Assembly: GCA_900128395.1 (NCBI GenBank)
Contig: LT649237.1
Span: forward strand, 62,001-82,037
Length of the DNA: 20,037 nt
Direction of reading: 5' to 3'
Source of the DNA: Stramenopiles sp. TOSAG23-2
Taxonomy: Eukaryota
In this document: positions 1-17,296 of the stretch, piece by piece
Position numbering within the stretch: position 1 is the first letter of the stretch
How the letters are laid out: each line of letters begins with the position of its first letter
The notes under the pieces: model-generated
The model's input: only the letters and a program-made list of their open reading frames with translations
The model's database searches: none
What the model was told of the DNA's origin: nothing
Program-made: the position numbers and the translations under genes

Positions 1-2292
1 TAATGCTGTACTGCTTGCTGCATTTAATTTTTCATTATCTCCGCATATATGTATAGCTGCAATTCGCATTTCACGTGCCAAAGCGGTATCGCATATAATC
101 ATCAGTAAATCATCTACCGTTAAAAGACCTGCACGACCAGCAACTTCTAATGCTTTTAAACGAATAGCTGTATCTGGAATGTCGGAAGTATTACCATTAC
201 TTCGCCCATTACTACTATTAGTCCAAACGGGTCTTCCTCTTCCACCACCATTATCTAGATTATTTTTTTTTATCGATGATGATGATGGTGATGAGAAATT
301 TGTATCAACAGAAAGCATTGGCAATCCATCATCAAACGATGTATTTAATGCATCGCTAGAGCCAACTGAACCAGCGATTTTCTGTCTAGAGCGTCTTTTA
401 ATACTTTTCTTAGTACTACTCATACGAGGTGACATGGATGTTGAATTTCTACGATTTTTATTTGGTGTGCTGGTCGCTCGTGCTGGTGATTGCAGTCGTA
501 TTAATGGAATATCATGTGGAGCATCATCATCTGTTTTACTTTTATTCAAATTACTTCCGCTACTACTACTACTACCTGCAATAGTACTCATACGTTTTTG
601 GCTATTTTTATATTGCAAATTTTTTTTCTCTCGAACATGATTTAATTCTGTCCATATTAATGCTCTTAATTCTCTACTAAAATCTACTACAACATTTGGT
701 GGTAAACTATCTAATATAAATATACGTTGGCTTATTTTACCATTCAATAACGTTTCTTTAATAATACGTTTTGAAACAGGATCGGCCATATTTAAATGAT
801 GAACATCAGCCCTAATATTATCCGTTGTTGAACTTATTGTTCCATCTAACGTACCAATCATATTATAAAATTCTTTTGCATATGCAACTCTGGCTCTTAT
901 TACTTCCACTAAAAAGCCGATTGCAAGTATGACAATACAAATTCCAATGATTTTTGCATCGCTATTATTACTACTGTGTTGTTGTTCTTCACTATCCATC
1001 AAAACTGGATTATTCTTTGCAATTTCTGATTGGTATTTTTGTATATATTTTAAAAACATCGATAAAAATGCAGCGCCAGCTCGTGCTACGGAGCGAAAGG
1101 ATCCAGTAATAATTGGTTTTGCCTTAAGACGGTCTTCAATGGATAATGGTAACCATAATAATTCTCTAGATGTACCAAAAATGGTATATGTAACAGCATT
1201 GTAAATAGCGCGTGTGGAAACTAACATGAATATACTTGGTGTGGCAGCTGTGAAAAAACCAAATAATATCATAGAAATCGGCATAAATGCAAGACCATAT
1301 AATACACCAAACTGTCTATTGATGTATGATGTCGATGCTTGTAATGGAATCATCAGTAAACTTTGAAAGCCATTGATAGATCCAAGTTTGTTTTTCATTT
1401 CCGCTTCCGGTAACTTGGACAATATAGCCAACATTTGTATATCGCAAAGCACACGACCTATCGTTGCAGCTACTTCAAATACGCACATGTGTATATAATA
1501 TGGTTTACTTAATATTATTTTCATTGCTGATGCATTTTTTTTGTTGGAGGAATTTTGTTCCGCATTGCTATCATTGCTACTATTGTTATTATTGGAATTG
1601 TTTGGAGTATTCTTGTTTTTTTTTGATCCAACAGGTGATGGTGATATAAGATAACCAATAGTAAGAAACATTGCAAAGCCAGATAATATTATCAAATTTT
1701 GAATTGTTGTTATTTTCCACTCGTTCAACTTTTTAATAAATCCAAAACCAATAAATAAAGATGCAAATGTTGATCCATAATTAATAGAGTTGACCGACAT
1801 TTTCTTATCGGATAATAAAAAACTACTAGATACAGATTCCCAAAATATTTGTAACATGATACCGACAATAATATCTGAACAAACATAAAATGCTCCTGCT
1901 ATGTATTTCGCATATTCTTGAGAGTTATTATTTTTACTATTATGACTAGTTGTTGAATTATCATCTTCATGCAACGAACTAATAATACTATAAAATAAAA
2001 AATAGACAACACTTATAATGCCACTTGCACCAATCGCCACTTTTTTCAAGCTATATTTCTTCAAAGATGATGAAACTAATTTTAATATCGGCAATGATAT
2101 AAACGATACTGACAAGATTGCATATGGTAATTGATCTTTATGAAAATATTTTAAAAACAACGTATCTCGTGTAATGAAAGTTAAAACTACAAAAATTACT
2201 AATACAAATAATAATATGCCGAAAAATACAATACGATATCGTTTGTTCCCATTCTCTTCCGATGTGGTTTTGTTAGATTTCGCTTTCTTCAT
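1..2292 (-). CDS. Npt1/Npt2 (TLC/AAA)-family MFS-like nucleotide transporter with C-terminal HEAT-like region; partial, runs off the left edge
   Basis: Translated by hand: ATG at 2292 (context aaaaccATGa) opens a 764-codon frame with no stop before base 1, which explains its absence from the ORF track. About 11-12 hydrophobic segments with motifs typical of bacterial NTT-HEAT proteins: TRDTLFLKYFHKDQLPY, QIFWE, RQFGV, RELLWLPLSIEDRLKAKPII...FRSVARAG, IRARVAYAKEF. A Ser/Asn-rich linker follows, then HEAT-like helices (DTAIRLKALEVAG, REMRIAAIHICG). Confidence 0.8.
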   Translation of the reverse strand, partial: MKKAKSNKTTSEENGNKRYRIVFFGILLFVLVIFVVLTFITRDTLFLKYFHKDQLPYAILSVSFISLPILKLVSSSLKKYSLKKVAIGASGIISVVYFLFYSIISSLHEDDNSTTSHNSKNNNSQEYAKYIAGAFYVCSDIIVGIMLQIFWESVSSSFLLSDKKMSVNSINYGSTFASLFIGFGFIKKLNEWKITTIQNLIILSGFAMFLTIGYLISPSPVGSKKNKNTPNNSNNNNSSNDSNAEQNSSNKKNASAMKIILSKPYYIHMCVFEVAATIGRVLCDIQMLAILSKLPEAEMKNKLGSINGFQSLLMIPLQASTSYINRQFGVLYGLAFMPISMILFGFFTAATPSIFMLVSTRAIYNAVTYTIFGTSRELLWLPLSIEDRLKAKPIITGSFRSVARAGAAFLSMFLKYIQKYQSEIAKNNPVLMDSEEQQHSSNNSDAKIIGICIVILAIGFLVEVIRARVAYAKEFYNMIGTLDGTISSTTDNIRADVHHLNMADPVSKRIIKETLLNGKISQRIFILDSLPPNVVVDFSRELRALIWTELNHVREKKNLQYKNSQKRMSTIAGSSSSSGSNLNKSKTDDDAPHDIPLIRLQSPARATSTPNKNRRNSTSMSPRMSSTKKSIKRRSRQKIAGSVGSSDALNTSFDDGLPMLSVDTNFSSPSSSSIKKNNLDNGGGRGRPVWTNSSNGRSNGNTSDIPDTAIRLKALEVAGRAGLLTVDDLLMIICDTALAREMRIAAIHICGDNEKLNAASSTAL

Positions 2293-2599
2293 GGTTTTAT
2301 TCTTGTCTCTTTGATATTTTATTTTGGATGATCTACTAATGAGATGGTTATTTGTTTTTTTGCGTTTGTTTTGTTGTGTGAATTAAGTGTATAGCTTTAG
2401 TTATGCATACAAGTATATGTTTTCTTACATGTATATCGATAATCGATAGTAGCTTCCTGTGCTGGTGTTGGTAAACTTTTTAATTGGGCACAGATATAGC
2501 ATGAATACAGTACCAGAATACACCACAGGGAGTAAAAATCGGATTACAATATTGTTCTTGTTATTTAGTGTATAGCATTACCAGGTAGAAACCCTATAA

Positions 2600-3465
2600 A
2601 TTACATGAAAATAGAGGAATGCTATGATGTGTACATGTATTGGACACATCTCTTTTTTGCATCACGTTTGGAATTGGTGTTGTTTTTATCTGAATCCATG
2701 GTATTATCAACGGTCTTTGTTTGATTGCGCTACACGATGTAATTGTTCTGGTTTATCATCAGTAGCTTCAAGTGAATGCGTTTGCAGACATTGAATTTTT
2801 TAAAATTGTTGTTATTCCCTCATTTAGATGCTTTTTTGCATCATTAGGTATAAATATACCTTTTGATTGAGCGGTGATTGTTTCCATGATTATTTTCTTT
2901 GTGGTTCGATTTAACATAATAACAAGCATCTTCATCATCACAAACTACCAATTGATTGATACTACCAATTGATTCACGCGGTGTCCATGCAGAAAGACTA
3001 TTACATTGCTCTGTGTAATATCGTACCACTTCTGTTGGCCCCAATGATTCAATATCAACTATTGCAAAAGAAATGGCATGGTACAAACAAATTCGAAAAA
3101 TGTACAAGTAGCAGTAGTATTTTCAAAATTTGATGCAACCCCAAGCTTTGTGTCACAGTATATACAAACAAATGTTGATGGAAGAGCTTGCAGCATCTGT
3201 ATTAAAGCTCAAACCACATTATAAATTGCATGAAACATGGTATGCCTTTGTATTGATTTTCTTGTTTTTTGTTGATGCACCTTGTATTATAATACCTGCA
3301 CTATAATTCAACACTCCAGAAAATTTGGTAAATTGTATGAAATATATAAATGTCACACATGCTCTAAAATTACGCGTATTCGATTATCATGGTATTTTAA
3401 ATCCAGCAGAACGAATCAAAATTTGGCCGGAAATAATTTTAACATTAATAAATGGAGAAAGATAA
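2600..3465. pseudogene. Possible decayed coding sequence, family unidentified
   Basis: Looks less AT-rich and less low-complexity than the other intergenic spacers. Long hydrophobic frames are broken by scattered stops, and a 14-bp direct repeat with 17-bp period (2944-2974) coincides with a frame switch. Confidence 0.25.
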
Positions 3466-3587
3466 TAAAGAACACGGTACGAGTTTGACCAATGCAGACT
3501 TTGTACAAAATGTGTTTGGTGTAACCGTTAAAGTAAGTAACCAAAATCCTATATATAGGTGACTAGGTAATATAAATAACACCTTAA

Positions 3588-5216
<1,629 letters not shown>

Positions 5217-5424: not shown

Positions 5425-6231
5425 TTAAAATAACGCCCCTTCACCATTACTTAAAAATGCAAATGTACCAGTTAAATTTTCAATTGCACCATCTTTTAAT
5501 GTTGTTATTTGTCTTCCTTTTTGTACTGCTTTTTTTATTTCACCAATTTCACCAGTAACAGATGCGTGTAATTTCTTCAAATCATCACATACAGGTAAAT
5601 ATCCAGTTAATTCTACTGGTGCATCGCCAACACCCCTTCCAAACATCCAAACTTTTGGATTTGTTGAACGATCATGTTTTGGATCAGTTGGACCAAAAAG
5701 TAACAATCGTAAATTATTTGCAAGATAAAACGTTGCAATCGCATGTTTTCCACCTTTCATTTCACGTGGTGGGCGATCTCTATCCGTCTTAATACCAGCT
5801 TTTTGCAATTGAGCAACCATTTCATGTAAATTTTGTGCATATAAAACTAGTTCTCCAAGTTGTAAACATGTATTTGGATGTTTTGGATCTGCTTTATGTT
5901 TTGTTTGTTCTTGTGCAAATACACTTAAACCATTTATAATAGGTGGATCGTGTAAATTATTATTATCAGCTCCAGAATTGTCTGGATAACCAAATACAAT
6001 ACCAGATAAACCTGTACCACTCCCAGTGACTCGTATATTTAAATTATTTAATTTTACTAAATTTTCTTCATCTACATTAAATCCTGCATTTTGCCATGCT
6101 TCTTTACTATCTCCAACAATAATTTCTTCAATACCCCATGTATTATTAATAGTTGCCGCTGTATAATTTCTGGATATACATGTTCTTGCTCCCCCTTTGA
6201 TTAATTGTTTAATTAATTGTACACGGCTCAT
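5425..6231 (-). CDS. VOC/glyoxalase-like protein with predicted mitochondrial presequence
   Basis: 268-aa ORF. Motifs IIVGDSKEAWQNAGFNV, HPNTCLQLGELVL, DDLKKL and KKAVQKGRQITTL...FAFLS resemble bacterial (actinobacterial-type) VOC proteins as recalled. Arg/Lys-rich, acid-free N-terminus MSRVQLIKQLIKGGARTCISRNY. Confidence 0.65.
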   Translation of the reverse strand: MSRVQLIKQLIKGGARTCISRNYTAATINNTWGIEEIIVGDSKEAWQNAGFNVDEENLVKLNNLNIRVTGSGTGLSGIVFGYPDNSGADNNNLHDPPIINGLSVFAQEQTKHKADPKHPNTCLQLGELVLYAQNLHEMVAQLQKAGIKTDRDRPPREMKGGKHAIATFYLANNLRLLLFGPTDPKHDRSTNPKVWMFGRGVGDAPVELTGYLPVCDDLKKLHASVTGEIGEIKKAVQKGRQITTLKDGAIENLTGTFAFLSNGEGALF

Positions 6232-6505: not shown

Positions 6506-7744
6506 ATGATACAGATAAAACGATTTCAAAACAATCCAATTGTAAATCAATCGATCCATATACATGGGGATTTTCCAGATGAATATCCATCAGATAATAA
6601 ATCAAATGCAGGTTCTTCTTGGGGGACGCAAGGAAATTTGTTTAATATTAATGGACCATCTTTAATTCATATTCCAGAAAATGTTCCAAATCGTCTTGGT
6701 AAATTCTATTTATATTTTGCACATCACAAAGGAAAATGTATACGCATGGCATATTCTGACCATGTTGAAGGTCCATATACATTGTACGGTCCTGGAACTT
6801 TGCATTTAAAGGATTCGCTCTATACAACAACAGTTCCAATTGTTTCTCAAGATGTGAAATTTGCTGCGGATGTAGCTTTTGGTGTTGAAAAATCAAAAGT
6901 TGATGTTGGTTTAGAACCTCATATAGCTTCACCAGATGTACATTATGATAGCGATACAAAAATATTCCGCATGTATTATCATGGATTATGTGGCAATGAA
7001 ATCTCCAAATTTGCTGGAATGCAATTGAGCAGGGTCGCAACATCTATAGATGGGATTAATTGGAAGGCATATACAGAAGAAATCATTAAAACAGTTTATT
7101 TGCGAACATTTAAATTTCGTGATGAAATTTATGGTCTTGGAATGCCTGGAAGATTTTTTCGCTCTGAAAATGGTATATCTAATTGGAAACGTTGTTCATC
7201 GTATGCATTTACAAACATTGGTATGTGCTTTCGACATTGTGCAGTACATTTAATTGAAGAAAAATCATTATTATATGTATTTTTTTCTCGTGCTGGTGAT
7301 TGTCCTGAAAGATTATTATTATCAATTGTAAATTTAAAAAGTAATGATTGGACGGAATGGGAAGCTACAGATCCAATTGATATTCTTAAAGCAGAAGAAG
7401 AATGGGAAGGTTCAATGGAAGATGTAGAATACAGTATGCGAGGTGCTGTTAGTGGATTGAATAATCAATTAAGAGATCCATTTATATTTTCATACGATGA
7501 TAAAACGTATTTATTATATAGTATTGGTGGTGAATTTGGCATAGGTGGTTGTGAAATTAGATTGCCAAAAAAAGATCAACATGAATTTTTCATCAACAAT
7601 ATAATGAAAAAAAGGATGAAAAACCCAATGAGTGATGTTATGTATACAAAAGCAGGTGCACTTGCATTTCAAGAAAAACGTGTTATATCAATAACAAATG
7701 CAAATCATGAATTAAAAATGAAACGAGTGAGTTCTAAAATTTAA
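6506..7744 (+). CDS. Glycoside-hydrolase-like five-bladed beta-propeller protein (GH43/GH130-like fold), substrate unknown
   Basis: 412-aa ORF with NINGPSLI, LGKFYLYFAHHKG, HIASPDVH, RMYYHG, ATSIDGINW, FRHCAV, GDCPERL, WEG, QLRDPFIF and YLLYSIGGEFGIG. This motif set is typical of a conserved bacterial propeller family. Confidence 0.7.
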   Translation: MIQIKRFQNNPIVNQSIHIHGDFPDEYPSDNKSNAGSSWGTQGNLFNINGPSLIHIPENVPNRLGKFYLYFAHHKGKCIRMAYSDHVEGPYTLYGPGTLHLKDSLYTTTVPIVSQDVKFAADVAFGVEKSKVDVGLEPHIASPDVHYDSDTKIFRMYYHGLCGNEISKFAGMQLSRVATSIDGINWKAYTEEIIKTVYLRTFKFRDEIYGLGMPGRFFRSENGISNWKRCSSYAFTNIGMCFRHCAVHLIEEKSLLYVFFSRAGDCPERLLLSIVNLKSNDWTEWEATDPIDILKAEEEWEGSMEDVEYSMRGAVSGLNNQLRDPFIFSYDDKTYLLYSIGGEFGIGGCEIRLPKKDQHEFFINNIMKKRMKNPMSDVMYTKAGALAFQEKRVISITNANHELKMKRVSSKI

Positions 7745-8299
7745 ATATATATTATATATAATTATATGATATATGCGCTCCCAACAGGGTACTTTATAAT
7801 AAAATAAAAATCTAAAAAACACATTTATGTACACACACACACACATATTCTTTAAACACTTGTGCACCTGAGTTTAAATGAAAAATAATATTAATCCACC
7901 ATGAAAAACCAAGAAATGTCAATTCCATAGGCCAAAATGAATTAATTTTCAATTTTGACTATATTATATTCAAATCTCCGTTTATTAAAAATGTATTATA
8001 AATTTTATCATATCATACACTATTACAAATGATCACATGATGATTTAATAAAAAAAGATATTTCCATTTAAAATGGAGCTACAACAAAGATTTAAAATTG
8101 AAGTTAGGCGTTAAATTGCACAAAAAAGAGAGGCAAAAATACTATAAATTATATATATACATCAATGTATAGAAGGGTAGATAGGTATATTGAACATATA
8201 TTTACATACAGTTATATACGGAGAGAAATTGTATCATCTATAAAACTTTCGTAAAATAGACGTAGGATACTACAGACATATAGATATATATATATATAG

Positions 8300-10264
8300 A
8301 TGTATATAACCATGTTGCGGCATATTATTCAACCAGTGACAAGGGCATCATCAACTAAAAAGAATATATTACGTTATACTAATAAATATAATAAAAATAG
8401 GACCAACATTGTGTATAATAATAATCAAAATAAAATCAATCCTTATTTCTTATTGAATTCATCGCAACCAAAACGAATATTATATTATCATACTACGAAA
8501 ATATTAAATCAAAGTGATGAAGATGAAAAGGAGAAGAAATCGATTGGATTTTTTGACCGTGAACATTCTGTAGCTCCAGAAGGTTTTAATCGTTGGCTAG
8601 CTGTGCCGGCTGGCACACTAATAACTGCTAGTATAGGCGCTGTCTATGCTTGGAGTTCCTTTAATGCACCATTATGTCGTACGTTGGGTGTTGTTGCCCC
8701 TGCTGCAAGTGATTGGGATCTTGGTAGTGTTGTACCTATCTTTTCAGCATGTGCAATTGGATTAGGCGTTGCTACTGCTACACTTGGTAGTTGGGCTGAA
8801 AGGGAAGGACCTCGTAAAACTGCTGGTGCAGCTAGTTTCTTATGGGCTGGTGGATTAGTAGTTACATCAATTGGTGCATATACACATATTTTACCTTTAT
8901 GTTATCTAGGCTATGGTGTCGGTGCTGGTATGGGTTGGGGATTAGGATATATAAGTCCCGTATCGAATCTAATGAAATGGTTTCCAGATAAACGTGGTTT
9001 AGCAACTGGTATGGCACTTGCAAGTTTTGGTGGTGGTGCTATTCTTGCTGCACCGATGAATAAATATTTTATTGAAAAATTTTTCGTCGCACCAGAGTAT
9101 TTAGGTACATTAGATACCGTAAATGTAGTGACAGAAGAGGGCAAACGATTTGTTGATTTTGCTGGTGAGATGAAAGAAGTTGTAGTTGCTACAGCAGCTG
9201 AAGTTTCAAAATTGCCTGGAGAATTGGTGGAAGGGGTATATGTAGTTGGTACTGGTAGTACTGGTGTTGCAGAGACATTTTTAGCATTAGGGACATTGCA
9301 TTTTGCTGCTATGATGACCGGTACATTGTTACAAAAAGTCCCACGTGAAGGTTGGAAGCCGGAAGGATGGGTTGGAGATGATACCGCTGCATCGATGGTA
9401 AAGGAGCCGGAGGGAGAAGGTAGTACAGCCACAGCAACTACATTAGCGGTACCAGTTGAAAATGCAATGAAAACAAAGCAATTTTGGTTAATGTGGTTTG
9501 GTGTCTTTGGAAATGCAATTGCTGGTGTCTCTGTAATGGCGTGTGCGAAAAATATTATTGGTGATGTATTTGCAAGTGCATTCCCCGCTATTATTACAGC
9601 TGGATTTATGTCTGGTTACTTAATGACATTAAGTGCGGCAAATGGTGGTGGGCGTTTTGCATGGGCAGCTATTAGTGATTACATTGGTAGAAAAAATACT
9701 ACAATGATATTTGGCCTATCCATCCCATTTGCATTAGGTCTGCCATATTTAACAACCATGGTAACGGAAGGTGGAGGTGGAACACTTCCATTGACATTAT
9801 TTTATGCTGGATCCGTATTAGTAATATCATTATACGGTGGTATATTTAGTGTATTACCAGCGCAAATTTCAGATAATTTTGGATTGAAACATGCTGGGGC
9901 CATTCATGGTAGAGCATTAACAGCATGGAGTACTAGTGCAGTTGTTGGACCGAAGATTTTAACAACATTACGACAAATATCTGTGGAAGATGCCATTACA
10001 GATTTAGTAGATAAATGTGATCCAACTGCATTTTATGATAGGTATGGTGCGCCTGTAAAAGATTTAAAAGAATTAATTGAAACCAAGACGGTTACGATTC
10101 CAAGCTTAATGGAAATTGTTCCACCAGGTACGTTAGATCCAACACCACATTTATATGATACAACATTTTATGCTATGAGTGGTATAATTGGTGCAGCATT
10201 ATTATGTAATGCATTAGTTGTCCCTGTAGCACGTAAACATTTTGTTGAAAGTGATAAGATATAA
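8300..10264 (+). CDS. MFS transporter, oxalate:formate antiporter (OFA)-like family, with long presequence-like N-terminus
   Basis: 654-aa ORF with about 12 TM segments. Motifs FFDREHSVAPEGFNRWL, IGAVYAWSSFN, EREGPR, GLGYISPVSNLMKWFPDKRGLATGMA, NGGGRFAWAAISDYIGRK, FGLKHAGAIHGRALTAWS. The start could be ATG 8300 or 8312. Confidence 0.9.
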   Translation: MYITMLRHIIQPVTRASSTKKNILRYTNKYNKNRTNIVYNNNQNKINPYFLLNSSQPKRILYYHTTKILNQSDEDEKEKKSIGFFDREHSVAPEGFNRWLAVPAGTLITASIGAVYAWSSFNAPLCRTLGVVAPAASDWDLGSVVPIFSACAIGLGVATATLGSWAEREGPRKTAGAASFLWAGGLVVTSIGAYTHILPLCYLGYGVGAGMGWGLGYISPVSNLMKWFPDKRGLATGMALASFGGGAILAAPMNKYFIEKFFVAPEYLGTLDTVNVVTEEGKRFVDFAGEMKEVVVATAAEVSKLPGELVEGVYVVGTGSTGVAETFLALGTLHFAAMMTGTLLQKVPREGWKPEGWVGDDTAASMVKEPEGEGSTATATTLAVPVENAMKTKQFWLMWFGVFGNAIAGVSVMACAKNIIGDVFASAFPAIITAGFMSGYLMTLSAANGGGRFAWAAISDYIGRKNTTMIFGLSIPFALGLPYLTTMVTEGGGGTLPLTLFYAGSVLVISLYGGIFSVLPAQISDNFGLKHAGAIHGRALTAWSTSAVVGPKILTTLRQISVEDAITDLVDKCDPTAFYDRYGAPVKDLKELIETKTVTIPSLMEIVPPGTLDPTPHLYDTTFYAMSGIIGAALLCNALVVPVARKHFVESDKI

Positions 10265-10739: not shown

Positions 10740-11915
10740 TTATCTTCTTATCTTCTCATTCTTCTTATCAAATTTACTTTTTAAATATTTCCGTATAATT
10801 CTTCTACCAAATTTAATTTCTTTAAATAACCATTTAATATGTTGATGTGACATTTGATTTATTGGCTTTGCCATTTGTTCTTCAAATGAATGTCGTTTAT
10901 TATAATTGTTACTAGTAACTAAAAGAAAATGTGTCAAAAATGTATGTGATTTACCATAAACGTGTGATAAATAATATTCTTGATCGCTACACCAATTTTC
11001 TGATGGTGGTATTGGTAAAAATTGACCTTTGAATATATCCATGTGCATTTTAGAGAAAAAAGCTTTTGTTATTACACGTTTATATTGTGGATCAAGGGCA
11101 GCGGCAATGCCAAAATTTGGTATTAATTCTTTTTTCAATAAAATACTAGTTAATTTTGTCAAAGTACATGACGACAATAAAAATGAATTTGAATTTAATT
11201 GATAAAAATAATCAGCCTTTTCAACATCATATGCTTCTTTTGCTAAATGATTCCATATATAACATGGGTTAGAAGTTTGATATGGATAAAATTTCATTTT
11301 CATATTTTCTATATTATCAATGTTTCCTTTGCGACGATGATGATGGGACCATTCTAATTCTTCTTCTTCTATGTGACGTATTAATTTCATTTTTAAGTTT
11401 TGAAACAATTTTTTTTTTACATAATTTTGATACTTTTTATTTTCAAGAAATGGTAATGCAATTTTATCGTATCCAAATAAAATGACAACATTAAAATTCT
11501 TCAGATCACAACTTAAAGTTTGAAATAATGAGTCAAAAAATGCTTCGATATTATCGTTATTACGTTTCATTTCGCGAATACGAACTAATAGTGCTATTTT
11601 TGTATTAGATGATTGATAGATATTATTGTCATTATTATTATTATTGTTGTCATTCTTGTTCTTATTCTTGTTGTTATCATATATCATGTGATTAATTTTT
11701 GGATTTAAGATTTCATTATGATTTCCACCACGTACATTAAAATTATCATCATTGATTGTAGACAAAGACGATGACGCTGTTCCATGTACATGTTTGTGCG
11801 GTGTATGAAAAAATAAGAATACGACAGTAAATATTGTAAATGAAGCGCAACAACCTAATATAATTAAAATACACTGTGCACAAATTGAATAACCATTATT
11901 TTTTCGTCTCCTCAT
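10740..11915 (-). CDS. GT-A fold (GT2-like) glycosyltransferase-like type II membrane protein, 391 aa
   Basis: First in-frame ATG at 11915 (the track start 11939 is TTG). Basic cytosolic tail, one TM helix, Asn-rich stem, then ILFGYD, PCYIWNHLAKEAY...ADYFYQLN, FSKMHMDIF, ENWCSD, LSHVY. Confidence 0.7.
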   Translation of the reverse strand: MRRRKNNGYSICAQCILIILGCCASFTIFTVVFLFFHTPHKHVHGTASSSLSTINDDNFNVRGGNHNEILNPKINHMIYDNNKNKNKNDNNNNNNDNNIYQSSNTKIALLVRIREMKRNNDNIEAFFDSLFQTLSCDLKNFNVVILFGYDKIALPFLENKKYQNYVKKKLFQNLKMKLIRHIEEEELEWSHHHRRKGNIDNIENMKMKFYPYQTSNPCYIWNHLAKEAYDVEKADYFYQLNSNSFLLSSCTLTKLTSILLKKELIPNFGIAAALDPQYKRVITKAFFSKMHMDIFKGQFLPIPPSENWCSDQEYYLSHVYGKSHTFLTHFLLVTSNNYNKRHSFEEQMAKPINQMSHQHIKWLFKEIKFGRRIIRKYLKSKFDKKNEKIRR

Positions 11916-12608
11916 ATTTCTAAATATATATTTTCTCAATTGATGATCCTATCATACACATATACATATATATATATATATTTATTTACTTTTGATTTGA
12001 TAAATGATGTTGATACAATATATTTGTTGTATATACTAGTCGTCTATCCATGGATATACATAGATGTATTTATGTATAAATGTGTTTGTTGAAGAATGTA
12101 AAATTGGTAAAAAAAAAAGCACCAAAAATGATGGAACGATTATCTATCTACTACAGAGGACATACACTATAAGTCCTATTTGTATATGCTAACTGGCTAG
12201 ACTAAATAAGTATAAAAATCAATAGTCTTCAGTCCACTTATCCTATTGTCCTTACTGGAAAAGTTGACTGAGGATGATGTGGATATAAATAGCAGCTAAA
12301 TTTTCATCTCATTTTCTCTCTGCATTTTCCTATAATTTGAAATAATAAGTTAAGGTATTATAAAAAATATCGTTTTCGTGTTTTCGTTCTTTTTCTTTCT
12401 TTTTTTTTTCAGGAAAAAATCTATTTCTTCTTCCTTTTTCACCCAAAAGATACAGTATGTGATATATATATATTATTATTCATACATGGATAGGACACAG
12501 GACATACTGTATATATAGATGTAAATAATGTAGGAAAAAGAAAAAACAAACCAGAAGGAAATTACAATCAATTTGTACACTTTTATTATATACAAAATTA
12601 GTAATATC

Positions 12609-13441: not shown

Positions 13442-15226
13442 TCATTGATTCATAATCATATCTGCACCTTTCTCAGCAATCATAATAGTTGGTGAATTTG
13501 TATTTCCACTTGTTATTGTTGGCATAATGCTAGCATCAATCACACGAATGCCATTTAATCCGTGTACACGTAACTCTTCATCTACTACGGCTGTCGGGTC
13601 ACTTCTTTGTCCCATTTTACATGTACCAACTGGATGAAAAATAGATAACGAAATATTCCCTGCAGCTTCTGCTAGTTCCTCATCTGATTGTAATTCTTTT
13701 CCAGGTAATATTTCATTTGGTTCATATTTTTCATACGCTTTGGTGCTCATAATTTTCCGATTCCATTGAATAGATTGCGAAGCAATTTCACGATCTTCAG
13801 GTGTGCTTAAATAATTTGGATCAATGATTGGATTGTTACGTATATCTGGGCCATCCAATGTAATGGAACCACGACTTGTCGGGCGCAAATTGCATACACT
13901 TAATGTAATTGCAGGAAATTTATGCAATGGATCGCCAAATTTATCTAGACTTAATGGTTGAAAATGATATTGTAAATTTGGGGTTTCAACATCTTCTGAT
14001 GATTTTAAAAATGCACCTAATTGACTTGGTGCCATACTAAGTGGACCTGCTTGTTTAAAAATATATTCTAATCCCATTTTAATATTATCAATAATACTAT
14101 GGTATTTTTGATTTAATGTTTCCGTGCCTTCTTTTAACCGATATATCCCTCGTATTTGCAAATGGTCTTGTAAATTGTACCCAACACCATCTAATTGATG
14201 CTTCACTTTTACCTCATTTTTTTCTAATACATCTTTCGGTCCAATACCTGATACTTGTAATAAATGTGGTGATCCAACGGCTCCAGCAGTTAAAACACAT
14301 TCTTTCTTTGAGAAAATTTGTTGTGCATTTCCACTTTTATCGTAATATTCAATTCCAACCACATTTTCCGTTTCCTCATCATCAAATAAAATTTCCTTTG
14401 CTTGTGCATTTGTAATTACAGTTAAATTATCACGATCTTTGACTGGATCTAAAAAAGCACCAGAAGATGACAAACGTACCCCATCCGTTTGATTGACTTG
14501 AAAATAACCAATACCTTCCTCATTACTATTGTTAAAATGTTTACTAGTATCAATACCAATTTCATTTGCACCTTCGACGACATCGTCCAAAACTTTCCAA
14601 CTTATACGTTGTTTTTGTACTTTCCATTCACCCCCTTGTGGATATTCATCTTGAATTTCCTTATTTTCATCATCATCAAAAAAAGCAGTGGAATAATCTA
14701 ATGGTTTTTGAAAATATTGTTTTACATTTTCCCATCCCCAACCATTATTACCTAATTCTTTCCATGTATCATAATCTTTCCTCTGTCCACGCATGTAGAT
14801 CATTCCGTTAATCGAGCTACATCCACCTAATACTTTTCCTCTTGGATAAATAATACTTCGCCCATTCAATCCTTCTTGCGGCTCAGTTTTGAAGCACCAA
14901 TCAGTATATTTATTTCCTTGTGAATATAAATACCCAACAGGTACATGTATCCACGGATACCAATCTTTACCACCAGCTTCTAGTATAGCTACTTTATTGT
15001 TTGGATTGGATGATAATCGATTTGCAACTACACAACCAGCTGAACCAGCACCTACGATGATATAATCATAGGTATTACTTTCATTTTTATTATTATATAC
15101 ACTTCCACCTTGTGTTGGTACAGTATTAGAAATGCATCTAATACTACTATTATTTATTTTTTTCCTACTATTCATCCATATGCCATTATTTTTCACATAT
15201 TTCAATAATATATTTCTTCGTAACAT
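13442..15226 (-). CDS. GMC-family FAD oxidoreductase (choline dehydrogenase-like; resembles bacterial 3-hydroxypropionate dehydrogenase subtype), 594 aa, predicted mitochondrial
   Basis: ATG at 15226 (the track start is GTG). Motifs [48 protein letters not shown], catalytic [10 protein letters not shown] and GNTNSPT. Presequence [12 protein letters not shown]...SIRCIS. Confidence 0.93.
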
Positions 15227-15499
15227 GATTGAATAAATACGAACAAAATAAACCACGGTTCGATTTCATACAATAGTAGTATATTGTCACGTTGTATACA
15301 ATTGATAATAATTCTTCGTTGCTTGATTGGTATATATATATATGTCTACTTAGATGCCGTACAACTTTTATTCTTTTTGTTCCGTCCATCAATATAATTT
15401 TGATCTATTTTTTTTGTTGCAAAAAGTTGGATTGAGAAGCGCAATTCGAGTAATCTGGTAATGGTATTTTCATGCCTACACCATAAAAGTGTTGCGCCT

Positions 15500-16111: not shown

Positions 16112-17296
16112 ATGGGATGTGGTGCCTCGATACAAAGAAATCCTGATGATGGTAAAGGATTGCCAATGAAAGAAGTGGAAAATTGGGGGCATGATAATAA
16201 TAATAATCAGCAGTCGGTGATAAATAATAATGTAAAGGAAAATATTCAATTTAATTTAAAATTTGAGCCATTGAAAGAATTATGGACTAGTGAAGATATG
16301 CCAAAAGGTAAAGCATTAGTATTATTAAAAGATTGTATAAATTCATATTCAAAATTTCTAATTGCATTTTTCAATCAATTTAGTAATAGTAATAAAGAGA
16401 AAATGTCGTTAGTCGAATTTAATAATTGTATGAAAACTTGTGGAATCGATTTGGATGAAGATACTATGAAAAATCATTTATTCGAAATTGTTGGGTATCC
16501 AGAAGATGAAGATGATGCTGAAGAATTAAGTAATATTACATGTACTGTTGGTGAATTTGCATCAGCGTTAGTTCGAATTGCAAATAGTCTTGCTATACAA
16601 AATAGCGGTGCTGATAATAGTGGATTGAAAAAACAATTTTTTGATTTAATAATAATAATTAAAACAAAATTAAAAGGTGAACTTGAAACTATTTATAATG
16701 AAGGGCCAAATCAAAGCAAAATACGAAATGAAGCATTTTTTTTGCCGCCTGATGATTTTAAAGGAACATCAAAAATTGTATTTTTAACACTTGGAACAAG
16801 TAATGATGATATATGGGGAAAAGTCAAGATAAAGCTGAATACGGAGATAACTCCAATAACATCGTATAATTTTTTTTCATTATGTACCAGCAACGAAAAC
16901 AGCATTGGCGAATTATCAAATGTTCCATTGTCATTAAAAGGCTCATCCTTTCATCGAATAGTAAAAAATTCATTTATTCAAGGAGGTGATATAACTGGAG
17001 GAGATGGGTATGGTGGTGAAAGTATTTATGGTGGTGATTATAACGATGAAAATTTTGAATTAAAACATGATGTTGAAGGAATTCTTTCAAGCGCAAATAA
17101 TGGTCCAAATACAAATTCATCTCAATTTTTTATTACAACATCGCCACAAGCACAATTAGATGGGGAAAATGTTGTTTTTGGAAATGTAATTGAAGGTATT
17201 GATATTGTAAAACGTGTTGAAAATGATATTAATACAGATGAAGATGATGTACCTTTATCAAAAATTTGTATCCTTGATTGTGGAGAGGTATTGTAA
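16112..17296 (+). CDS. N-myristoylated/palmitoylated protein with degenerate EF-hand-like region fused to a C-terminal cyclophilin-type PPIase domain
   Basis: 394-aa ORF starting MGCGAS. Mid-region KMSLVEFNNCMKTCG...EFASALVRIA. Cyclophilin motifs PITSYNFFSLCT, FHRIVKNSFIQGGDITGGDGYGGESIYG, DENFELKH, ANNGPNTNSSQFFIT, LDGENVVFG. Confidence 0.9.
   Translation: MGCGASIQRNPDDGKGLPMKEVENWGHDNNNNQQSVINNNVKENIQFNLKFEPLKELWTSEDMPKGKALVLLKDCINSYSKFLIAFFNQFSNSNKEKMSLVEFNNCMKTCGIDLDEDTMKNHLFEIVGYPEDEDDAEELSNITCTVGEFASALVRIANSLAIQNSGADNSGLKKQFFDLIIIIKTKLKGELETIYNEGPNQSKIRNEAFFLPPDDFKGTSKIVFLTLGTSNDDIWGKVKIKLNTEITPITSYNFFSLCTSNENSIGELSNVPLSLKGSSFHRIVKNSFIQGGDITGGDGYGGESIYGGDYNDENFELKHDVEGILSSANNGPNTNSSQFFITTSPQAQLDGENVVFGNVIEGIDIVKRVENDINTDEDDVPLSKICILDCGEVL

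Follow-up and report, generated by a model that had tools for sequence, protein, structure and literature searches.

An NTT carrier is usually taken to signal energy parasitism or the presence of a plastid. Proteins in which an NTT domain is fused to HEAT repeats, with or without a following cyclic-nucleotide-binding domain (cNBD), are monophyletic and widespread in bacteria, according to the passages on fusions in Major, Embley, and Williams (2017; PMC5381601). The same passages describe the oomycetes as the only eukaryotes that carry the fusion, with a duplicated cNBD, report a weak Marinimicrobia link, and suggest, with no test of the idea, that cAMP might adjust the uptake of ATP. A 2019 review, where it touches on the fusions, also calls them exclusive to oomycetes among eukaryotes (PMC6995639). 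A full-text search of the literature for "NTT-HEAT" gave no report from a further eukaryotic lineage; the species-named supplementary trees of Major et al. may list more. Here we describe a gene of this type that begins at the left end of a 20,037-nucleotide stretch of DNA (the window; contig LT649237.1, positions 62,001 to 82,037, deposited as Stramenopiles sp. TOSAG23-2).

The architecture itself was already known in 2017 from bacteria and oomycetes. The window protein represents a second eukaryotic subclade, which is well conserved and comprises six or more proteins, including one from EukProt. What is new is that this subclade occurs in a marine plankton organism, that its members carry a large disordered linker, and that there is evidence of common ancestry with the oomycete genes. 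An earlier note on this DNA had proposed an NTT-HEAT(-cNMP) fusion in a protist, and that proposal was borne out, with a predicted HEAT/ARM-type solenoid followed by predicted cyclic nucleotide monophosphate (cNMP)-binding domains in the tail. Its statement that such fusions are described from free-living bacteria and are poorly characterised was incomplete, since oomycete fusions with a duplicated cNBD are described in the fusion passages of the 2017 paper (PMC5381601).

The gene and its predicted product

An open reading frame (ORF) listing with open ends, together with the translation, gave a minus-strand frame of 764 codons (window positions 2292 to 1) that is free of stops up to the left edge. 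The earlier note had presented this frame as a hidden gene. The frame is real, but its absence from the default ORF listing results from the rule for frames that run off the end of the window and is not a property of the gene. The stop-to-stop frame opens at 2382, ahead of the ATG at 2292. The other 822 codons lie past the left edge, and the cNBDs and most of the HEAT part were read from two off-window sources. The first is a protein of 1586 residues (P0152) that was found in a word-index search for longer proteins and is identical to the window product over the window's part. The second is the metagenome contig L046, which contains the complete gene as an uninterrupted frame of 4758 nucleotides, with 1579 of 1586 residues identical to P0152. 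Between L046 and the window, 3 of 400 aligned bases differ, so L046 was assembled separately, from a near-identical strain. The word-index search also returned proteins with 73 to 74% (P0153 and P0154), 54% (P0002), 48% (P0004), and 37% identity (P0006, the EukProt protein). When 1.84 billion representative proteins were scanned in full with HMMER, 165 homologues were found at E values of ≤1e-3, 37 at ≤1e-10, and 16 at ≤1e-30.

Strain variation was read from 28 of 36 single-base differences inside the ORF, drawn from environmental contigs. Half of these (14) were silent and 14 changed a residue, while 21% silent changes would be expected if the changes were random. The silent differences all lay in the folded membrane domain, where the four residue-changing ones were all conservative (A89V, V137I, I267M, and S359A). 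The remaining residue changes were found in the disordered linker (7 of 7 of the differences listed there), the central low-complexity loop (two, none silent), and the N-terminal tail (one, none silent). This pattern places the membrane domain under purifying selection and leaves the linker free to change. The frame did not arise by chance but is a true nuclear gene with a single exon, kept by selection in a marine eukaryote.

The membrane domain was assigned by profile alignment and by structure prediction. Four profiles were built, from a 21-sequence family (A1), from 13 stand-alone proteins of which 11 are TLC positive (A2), from the window's 6-sequence clade (A3), and from Marinimicrobia-type fusions (A5). 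Aligned with hhalign, A3 matched A2 with a probability of 99.87% and an E value of 1.5e-31 over 411 columns (query positions 21 to 466). Against the PDB, A2 found the solved NTT1 of Chlamydia pneumoniae (CpNTT1; E value, 9e-55) and that of Arabidopsis (AtNTT1; 6e-46), and A1 found the same two structures (7e-35 and 9e-32, respectively), with its middle part matching designed HEAT-like alphaRep proteins and its end matching cyclic-nucleotide-binding (cNB) domains. The AlphaFold model of the 764 residues had a mean predicted local distance difference test (pLDDT) score of 72.4, with the twelve long helices (about 80 to 97) placed between residues 8 and 482 and with disordered segments at residues 224 to 252 (pLDDT below 50, inside the central loop), 482 to 498, and 560 to 705. 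The top three Foldseek matches of this model (PDB 9j3l, 9j3m, and 9j3n) were ATP-bound AtNTT1, ADP/Pi-bound AtNTT1, and CpNTT1, with E values of 1.2e-8 to 9.4e-8 and TM-scores by target of 0.67 to 0.71; generic major facilitator superfamily (MFS) carriers ranked after them. Several family motifs are kept, namely, RDT (residues 42 to 44), W151, K164, G173, E377, P382, and K392. The strings that the earlier note had quoted in support of a membrane domain are all present (RDTLFL, residues 42 to 47; LPY, 55 to 57; RELLWLPL, 376 to 383; and RLKAKPII, 388 to 395), and its assignment of this part to the NTT/TLC type agrees with the hhalign match to the TLC-positive set and with the three solved NTTs at the head of the Foldseek list. 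Judged by these profile matches and by the model, the membrane domain is homologous to bona fide TLC members, with a predicted NTT-like MFS fold, and does not belong to an unrelated MFS family. The solved AtNTT1 and CpNTT1 (9j3j, 9j3l, 9j3m, and 9j3n) share this 12-helix fold but are stand-alone, tail-less proteins of about 500 to 600 residues, with 13 to 14% identity to the window protein in the fold alignment. The sole above-cut-off Pfam match of the 764-residue product, DUF2615 (25.3 bits, residues 198 to 245), lies on the Asn/Ser run of the central loop and was therefore treated as an artefact of composition.

The tail begins with helical hairpins at residues 505 to 556, which, when compared by hhalign with bacterial fusion proteins, fall on the opening part of their HEAT region. 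After the linker, the main solenoid starts in the window and extends off-window to about residue 1150. A model of P0152 from residue 704 onward (mean pLDDT, 73.4) gave helical repeats over about 445 residues, mostly with pLDDT values of 80 to 93 (model residues 5 to 448), followed by two beta-rich domains. By VIA-align, the repeats matched 8rbx_g, an Integrator-PP2A chain, with a Z score of 10.8 over 287 aligned residues, a value at which the likeness may reflect only a common arrangement, as VIA-align warns for repeats with Z scores below about 13. The other matches, YibA (Z score, 9.7; 263 of 273 residues aligned), CpcE/F (8.4), and armadillo and TOG proteins, are also in this possibly generic range. 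The HEAT assignment consequently draws on two things together, the fold and the homology to the bacterial region that passes HEAT_2. With respect to the latter, A3 and A5 are collinear over 1029 columns by hhalign (query positions 26 to 1464, template positions 17 to 1053; E value, 9e-56). When 22 distant homologues were scanned with Pfam models, TLC passed in 11, cNMP_binding in 9, and HEAT_2 in 6. These domains typically occur in the order NTT, HEAT, and cNBD, in proteins of about 1000 to 1070 residues. Of 14 further, shorter matches, 12 passed TLC.

For the end of the tail, the cNMP-binding model that the earlier note had named as a check (PF00027) passed in P0152 at residues 1380 to 1469 (29.7 bits; cut-off, 27.5). 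The best Foldseek matches of the tail were PKA and PKG regulatory subunits with two cNB domains in tandem (E value, 6e-9; about 360 columns), and each beta-rich domain matched single cNB domains with VIA-align Z scores of 9 to 12. In an alignment with PKA regulatory subunits, the segment YGEIALLPQATR falls on their phosphate-binding cassette, with E1429 and R1438 as the cassette Glu and Arg; G1428, L1432, L1433, P1434, and R1438 are invariant in the clade (6/6). As in the PKA and PKG regulatory subunits (3of1 and 5kbf), P0152 has two consecutive cNB folds, the second with Gly-Glu...Arg. In P0152, however, the two folds end a membrane protein, whereas those of PKA and PKG regulate a kinase, and the first domain of P0152 has no recognisable cassette. 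Taken together, the model and the alignments indicate that the tail is a predicted HEAT/ARM-like solenoid (about 500 residues, split by the linker) followed by two tandem cNB folds, of which the last keeps the Gly-Glu...Arg of the phosphate-binding cassette and is predicted to bind a ligand. At its very C terminus (residues 1576 to 1586, off-window; L046 about 7726 to 7758), P0152 reads RRRKRKGVHLM, with R1576 to R1578 and the final Met invariant in all six window-type proteins; this end may be a sorting or retention signal.

The linker divides the window-type proteins from their relatives. Between residues 556 and 708, the window protein has 33 Ser and 16 Asn in 153 residues, and pLDDT values are below 50 from residue 560 to 705. 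The earlier note had read a disordered Ser/Asn insert followed by helices, as was found here, with confident helices at residues 708 to 752. This segment is 104 to 153 residues long in all six window-type proteins, compared to 8 to 14 in five of five oomycete-type and 1 to 4 in 10 of 10 bacterial-type proteins. Two loops (residues 107 to 126 and 424 to 447) are also longer in the window-type proteins. The low-complexity inserts that had been noted earlier as a eukaryotic style are therefore specific to the window's subclade and not to eukaryotes in general. Two antisense frames over this region, 2 to 640 (+, 212 residues) and 179 to 640 (+, 153 residues), have no gene support; they mirror the low-complexity linker and are probably not genes, although the shorter one is the only frame that the default listing gives here. 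The positions of the features of the gene in the window are listed in the table.

Table. Features of the NTT-HEAT-cNBD fusion gene in the window (aa, residues of the product)
Feature	Window positions	Strand	Basis or description
5' 2292 nt (codons 1-764) of the single-exon NTT-HEAT-2xcNBD gene, product 1586 aa	1..2292	-	Open frame; P0152; L046
Likely start codon, first ATG of the frame	2290..2292	-	P0153 and P0154 start at the same alignment place
Predicted NTT/TLC-type MFS membrane domain, aa 20-482, twelve long helices (6+6)	847..2235	-	hhalign, AF2 pLDDT ~80-97, Foldseek
Central cytoplasmic loop, Asn/Ser-rich low-complexity run, aa 217-256	1525..1644	-	13 N + 10 S in 40 residues
Predicted first helical hairpins past the membrane domain, aa 505-556	625..780	-	Helices 505-517, 520-529, 535-556, pLDDT ~80-85
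Disordered Ser/Asn/Lys/Arg-rich linker, aa 557-707	172..624	-	pLDDT 28-39; specific to the window's subclade
Predicted start of main HEAT/ARM-like solenoid, aa 708-764	1..171	-	Helices 708-720, 726-734, 740-752, pLDDT 86-89

Proposed cyclic-nucleotide-regulated transport and its alternatives

We consider it likely that this is a real gene of the NTT-HEAT-cNBD fusion clade of the TLC/NTT superfamily, with cNMP-regulated transport as the proposed activity. The latter function, regulated transport of nucleotides, we infer from domain homology. Both termini of a 12-helix MFS protein are cytosolic, so the tail would be placed in the cytosol. There, cAMP or cGMP would bind to the last cNB domain, and the signal would be relayed via the solenoid to the transport domain. 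The relayed signal would adjust how much of a nucleotide, or of a solute resembling one, passes through the plasma membrane or an endomembrane.

Several observations weigh against this proposal. The direct searches with the Pfam TLC and HEAT models that the earlier note had suggested did not find the protein, and profile-level methods were needed. Pfam TLC and HEAT models missed both the 764-residue product (at E values of ≤1) and P0152 (≤0.1), direct Pfam and NCBIfam scans of the 764-residue product gave no TLC, MFS, or HEAT match, and the HEAT models PF13646 and PF02985 had no match in the window product or P0152. Relatives come closer to the thresholds or pass them. P0006 and P0012 score 19.8 and 18.5 bits with Pfam TLC (cut-off, 21); for HEAT, P0154 reaches an E value of 0.0076 and P0012 26.6 bits (cut-off, 27.7), and bacterial relatives pass (6 of 22 scanned). 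Because the gathering cut-off of PF03219 is missed, we do not call the protein a canonical TLC member but place it in the superfamily's divergent fusion clade. A phmmer search of the single protein against PDB sequences gave nothing useful, and A3 alone matched only cNBD proteins in the PDB among the best 60 of 81 matches at E values of ≤0.01. The Z scores of the repeats (8 to 11) fall in the range that VIA-align calls possibly generic. The first cNB domain is without a recognisable cassette, and the cassette Glu of the second is present in four of the six clade members and replaced in two. The RNA evidence consists of contigs only, some of which cross the intron of a neighbouring gene; this indicates DNA or pre-mRNA in those libraries, and transcription of the gene is therefore not proven. 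With respect to precedent, the passages on fusions in the 2017 paper report no assay of any NTT-HEAT protein and mention NTT-family members that failed to transport nucleotides (PMC5381601).

A further point concerns the substrate. The canonical RDTKD reads RDTLF in the window protein and RDTFF in bacterial fusions, and substrate contacts may thus differ from those of canonical NTTs. The Lys of RDTKD is among the residues required for adenylate transport in AtNTT1. We take the essential residues of AtNTT1 to be K155, E245, E385, and K527, for which the equivalents by eye in the window protein are presumably L45, D162, D284, and K390 or K392. It is possible, if less probable than the regulated nucleotide transport proposed above, that the protein has the NTT fold but moves a cargo other than nucleotides, or moves nucleotides outward (ATP to a lumen or the cell exterior) and is not an importer. 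The replacement of Lys-Asp by Leu-Phe, the distance of the fusion clade from characterised NTTs, and the failure of Pfam TLC to match the window protein are all in line with such a change. On the other hand, the family motifs listed above are kept, and the best fold matches are solved ATP/ADP translocators, which rank above other MFS proteins; none of this bears on the direction of transport.

The size of the tail allows a different role. At about 1100 residues it exceeds the membrane domain in length, HEAT repeats as a rule serve protein-protein contacts according to the same part of the 2017 paper (PMC5381601), and oomycete-type proteins, as read from P0155, have no Arg at the cassette position. 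The protein could accordingly be a membrane-anchored sensor or scaffold (a "transceptor") that no longer transports and whose HEAT arm recruits partners under cNMP control. We judge this quite unlikely, as the membrane domain is the most conserved part of the protein by the strain differences described above, and many of the residues that are invariant across the six clade members lie in membrane helices. Regulated transport remains the reading that we prefer.

Origin of the eukaryotic fusion genes

The candidates for phylogenetic analysis were the proteins from the homology searches (P0001 to P0156) and the ORFs of 45 named bacterial loci. Rows in which the NTT domain covers the profile were kept for a FastTree analysis (122 rows; P0001, a duplicate, and P0122 were dropped), and a more careful unrooted tree was computed from 51 hand-picked rows and 470 columns with IQ-TREE (LG+C20+F+G4 PMSF). 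In the IQ-TREE analysis, all 13 eukaryote-type rows formed one clade, with support of 100/100 and a stem length of 1.96 changes per column. Its oomycete-type members (Achlya, Thraustotheca, P0008, P0010, P0012, and P0021; support, 100/99) formed a group that was sister to the window-type group; the latter was not nested within it and had a core support of 99/98, or 86/77 when P0011 was added. The nearest bacterial clade (98/91) contained Fidelibacterota/Marinimicrobia and unnamed proteins of 995 to 1066 residues, in keeping with the weak Marinimicrobia link of Major et al. In this tree the fusion proteins group together, with the eukaryotic clade adjoining a bacterial fusion clade. The same eukaryotic clade was recovered by FastTree but with a different bacterial neighbour, and the donor is thus not settled. 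On these trees, the eukaryotic clade shows an apparent single origin shared with the oomycete proteins and is nested among bacterial fusion proteins.

Domain content gives a similar picture. The proteins of Thraustotheca clavata (P0155) and Achlya hypogyna (P0156), both of which carry the NCBI label "ABC superfamily," resemble the window protein in domain order, in having two cNB domains, and in belonging to the eukaryotic clade. They differ from it in sequence (28 to 30% identity over the first 560 residues in the word-index search), in their short linker, and in their shorter loops. In the window protein, by contrast, the last cNB domain still has the cassette Arg, and the host is a marine plankton eukaryote with a GC content of 31%. 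Of the widespread and characterised eukaryotic orthologues that the earlier note had allowed for, the oomycete ones are known but uncharacterised. The bacterial fusions (Fidelibacterota/Marinimicrobia loci L001 to L014 and proteins P0034 and P0035) share the motifs (T/A)RDTxF(L/M), FW, PYxxH, ELLWLP, and KxKP with the window protein. However, they are about 1050 residues long, have one canonical cNB domain and no low-complexity inserts, and are only about 17 to 23% identical to it. Both eukaryotic groups thus have two cNB domains, and the bacterial proteins scanned have one.

The habitat could suggest that the window lineage acquired its gene recently and directly from bacteria, independently of the oomycete gene. 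The best bacterial-type matches, P0034 and P0035 (E value, about 1e-14), are marine Fidelibacterota/Marinimicrobia from the same habitat, and P0034 is 89% identical to a protein from a Neomarinimicrobiota metagenome-assembled genome. Such a separate transfer is nevertheless highly improbable, given that the window-type and oomycete-type proteins form one fully supported clade on a long stem, recovered in both trees, that the two eukaryotic groups share the second cNB domain, and that the GC content of the gene fits that of the neighbouring genes. The single clade and the duplicated cNBD favour one acquisition shared with the oomycetes. The host is probably a non-oomycete marine lineage, and its placement as a stramenopile outside the crown oomycetes is inferred from the tree and the habitat. 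P0011, the protein that joins the window-type clade at 86/77, has 583 residues, with long Gly/Ala runs, and apparently comes from a GC-rich organism; it hints at the presence of the family in further eukaryotic lineages.

Genomic setting and significance

The window is eukaryotic. The gene adjoining the transporter gene encodes a pyridoxal phosphate (PLP) enzyme of Cys/Met metabolism, like O-acetylhomoserine sulfhydrylase (3744 to 5216, +), and is split by an intron. The intron was read as 4343 to 4423 (81 nucleotides, GTAAGT...CAG), and joining the exons restores a conserved motif in frame. RNA-library contigs of X15 and X19 cross this intron unspliced. Further genes in the window encode an MFS protein, a GST, a GMC oxidoreductase, a cyclophilin, and a kelch protein. 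The GC content of the transporter gene, 0.31 to 0.35, lies inside the window's range of 0.26 to 0.41. The gene itself is intron-less and can be read whole by a prokaryote-style gene caller, but it is barely credible that the frame stems from contaminating bacteria or from a virus, or that it is a pseudogene in decay. It shares a contig with the gene that has the intron and with genes of typically eukaryotic kind (kelch, cyclophilin, and dual-specificity phosphatase), and both assemblies have all 1586 codons uninterrupted. A scan of a viral contig collection and a tblastn search of plasmid sequences yielded no relative, and the pattern of strain differences indicates purifying selection.

DNA of the window is met again in seawater and marine metagenomes from several studies, and fragments of it are present in marine metatranscriptomes, including poly(A)-selected ones. 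RNA-library contigs, again including poly(A)-selected ones, are collinear with the window over 169 to 2434 and show no splice within the ORF, and one passes the left edge of the window. Positions 2479 to 3009 and 3364 to 3540 were uncovered in all four RNA runs, and 2479 to 3540 was uncovered in X15; these gaps were not counted as evidence. Directly upstream of the start codon, 2303 to 2434 is a strain-variable region, in which an X15 contig (record 4) has 8 other letters in place of window positions 2304 to 2356 and small deletions at 2392 to 2409.

For the GMC oxidoreductase (choline dehydrogenase-like; 13442 to 15256, -), matches with less than 73% identity span about 88 to 92% of the query, consistent with a terminal extension. 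This protein has a few unnamed close relatives (69 to 98% identity), followed by marine Alphaproteobacteria (54 to 58%), which suggests a mitochondrion-derived or transferred gene. The cyclophilin-domain protein (16112 to 17296, +) has an N-terminal extension of 234 residues beginning with MGCGAS, a start that we take to be a possible N-myristoylation/palmitoylation signal. ORFs at 5425 to 6231 (-), 6506 to 7744 (+), and 10740 to 11939 (-), of 268, 412, and 399 residues, respectively, had no Pfam match at E values of ≤1e-3. Off-window and downstream of the transporter gene, L046 carries the dual-specificity phosphatase gene (8023 to 9177, -; Pfam DSPc, E value, 9e-36).

The gene described here widens the distribution of the fusion family and suggests one ancient acquisition in common with the oomycetes. 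The fusion clade has many members and is widespread, and an intron-free, easily cloned eukaryotic gene suits a first functional test. As a speculation that is unlikely to hold in full, an early stramenopile may have acquired the fusion gene in a single event from a marine bacterium resembling Marinimicrobia, ahead of the divergence of the oomycetes. Besides the parasitic oomycetes, the gene would then have survived in abundant free-living marine heterotrophic protists as a cNMP-gated nucleotide carrier, for example, for the salvage of prey nucleotides, with a phosphorylatable Ser-rich linker adding eukaryote-specific control. If true, this would end the printed view of the fusion as restricted to oomycetes among eukaryotes, and it would decouple NTT-type carriers in eukaryotes from a parasitic or plastid-bearing lifestyle.

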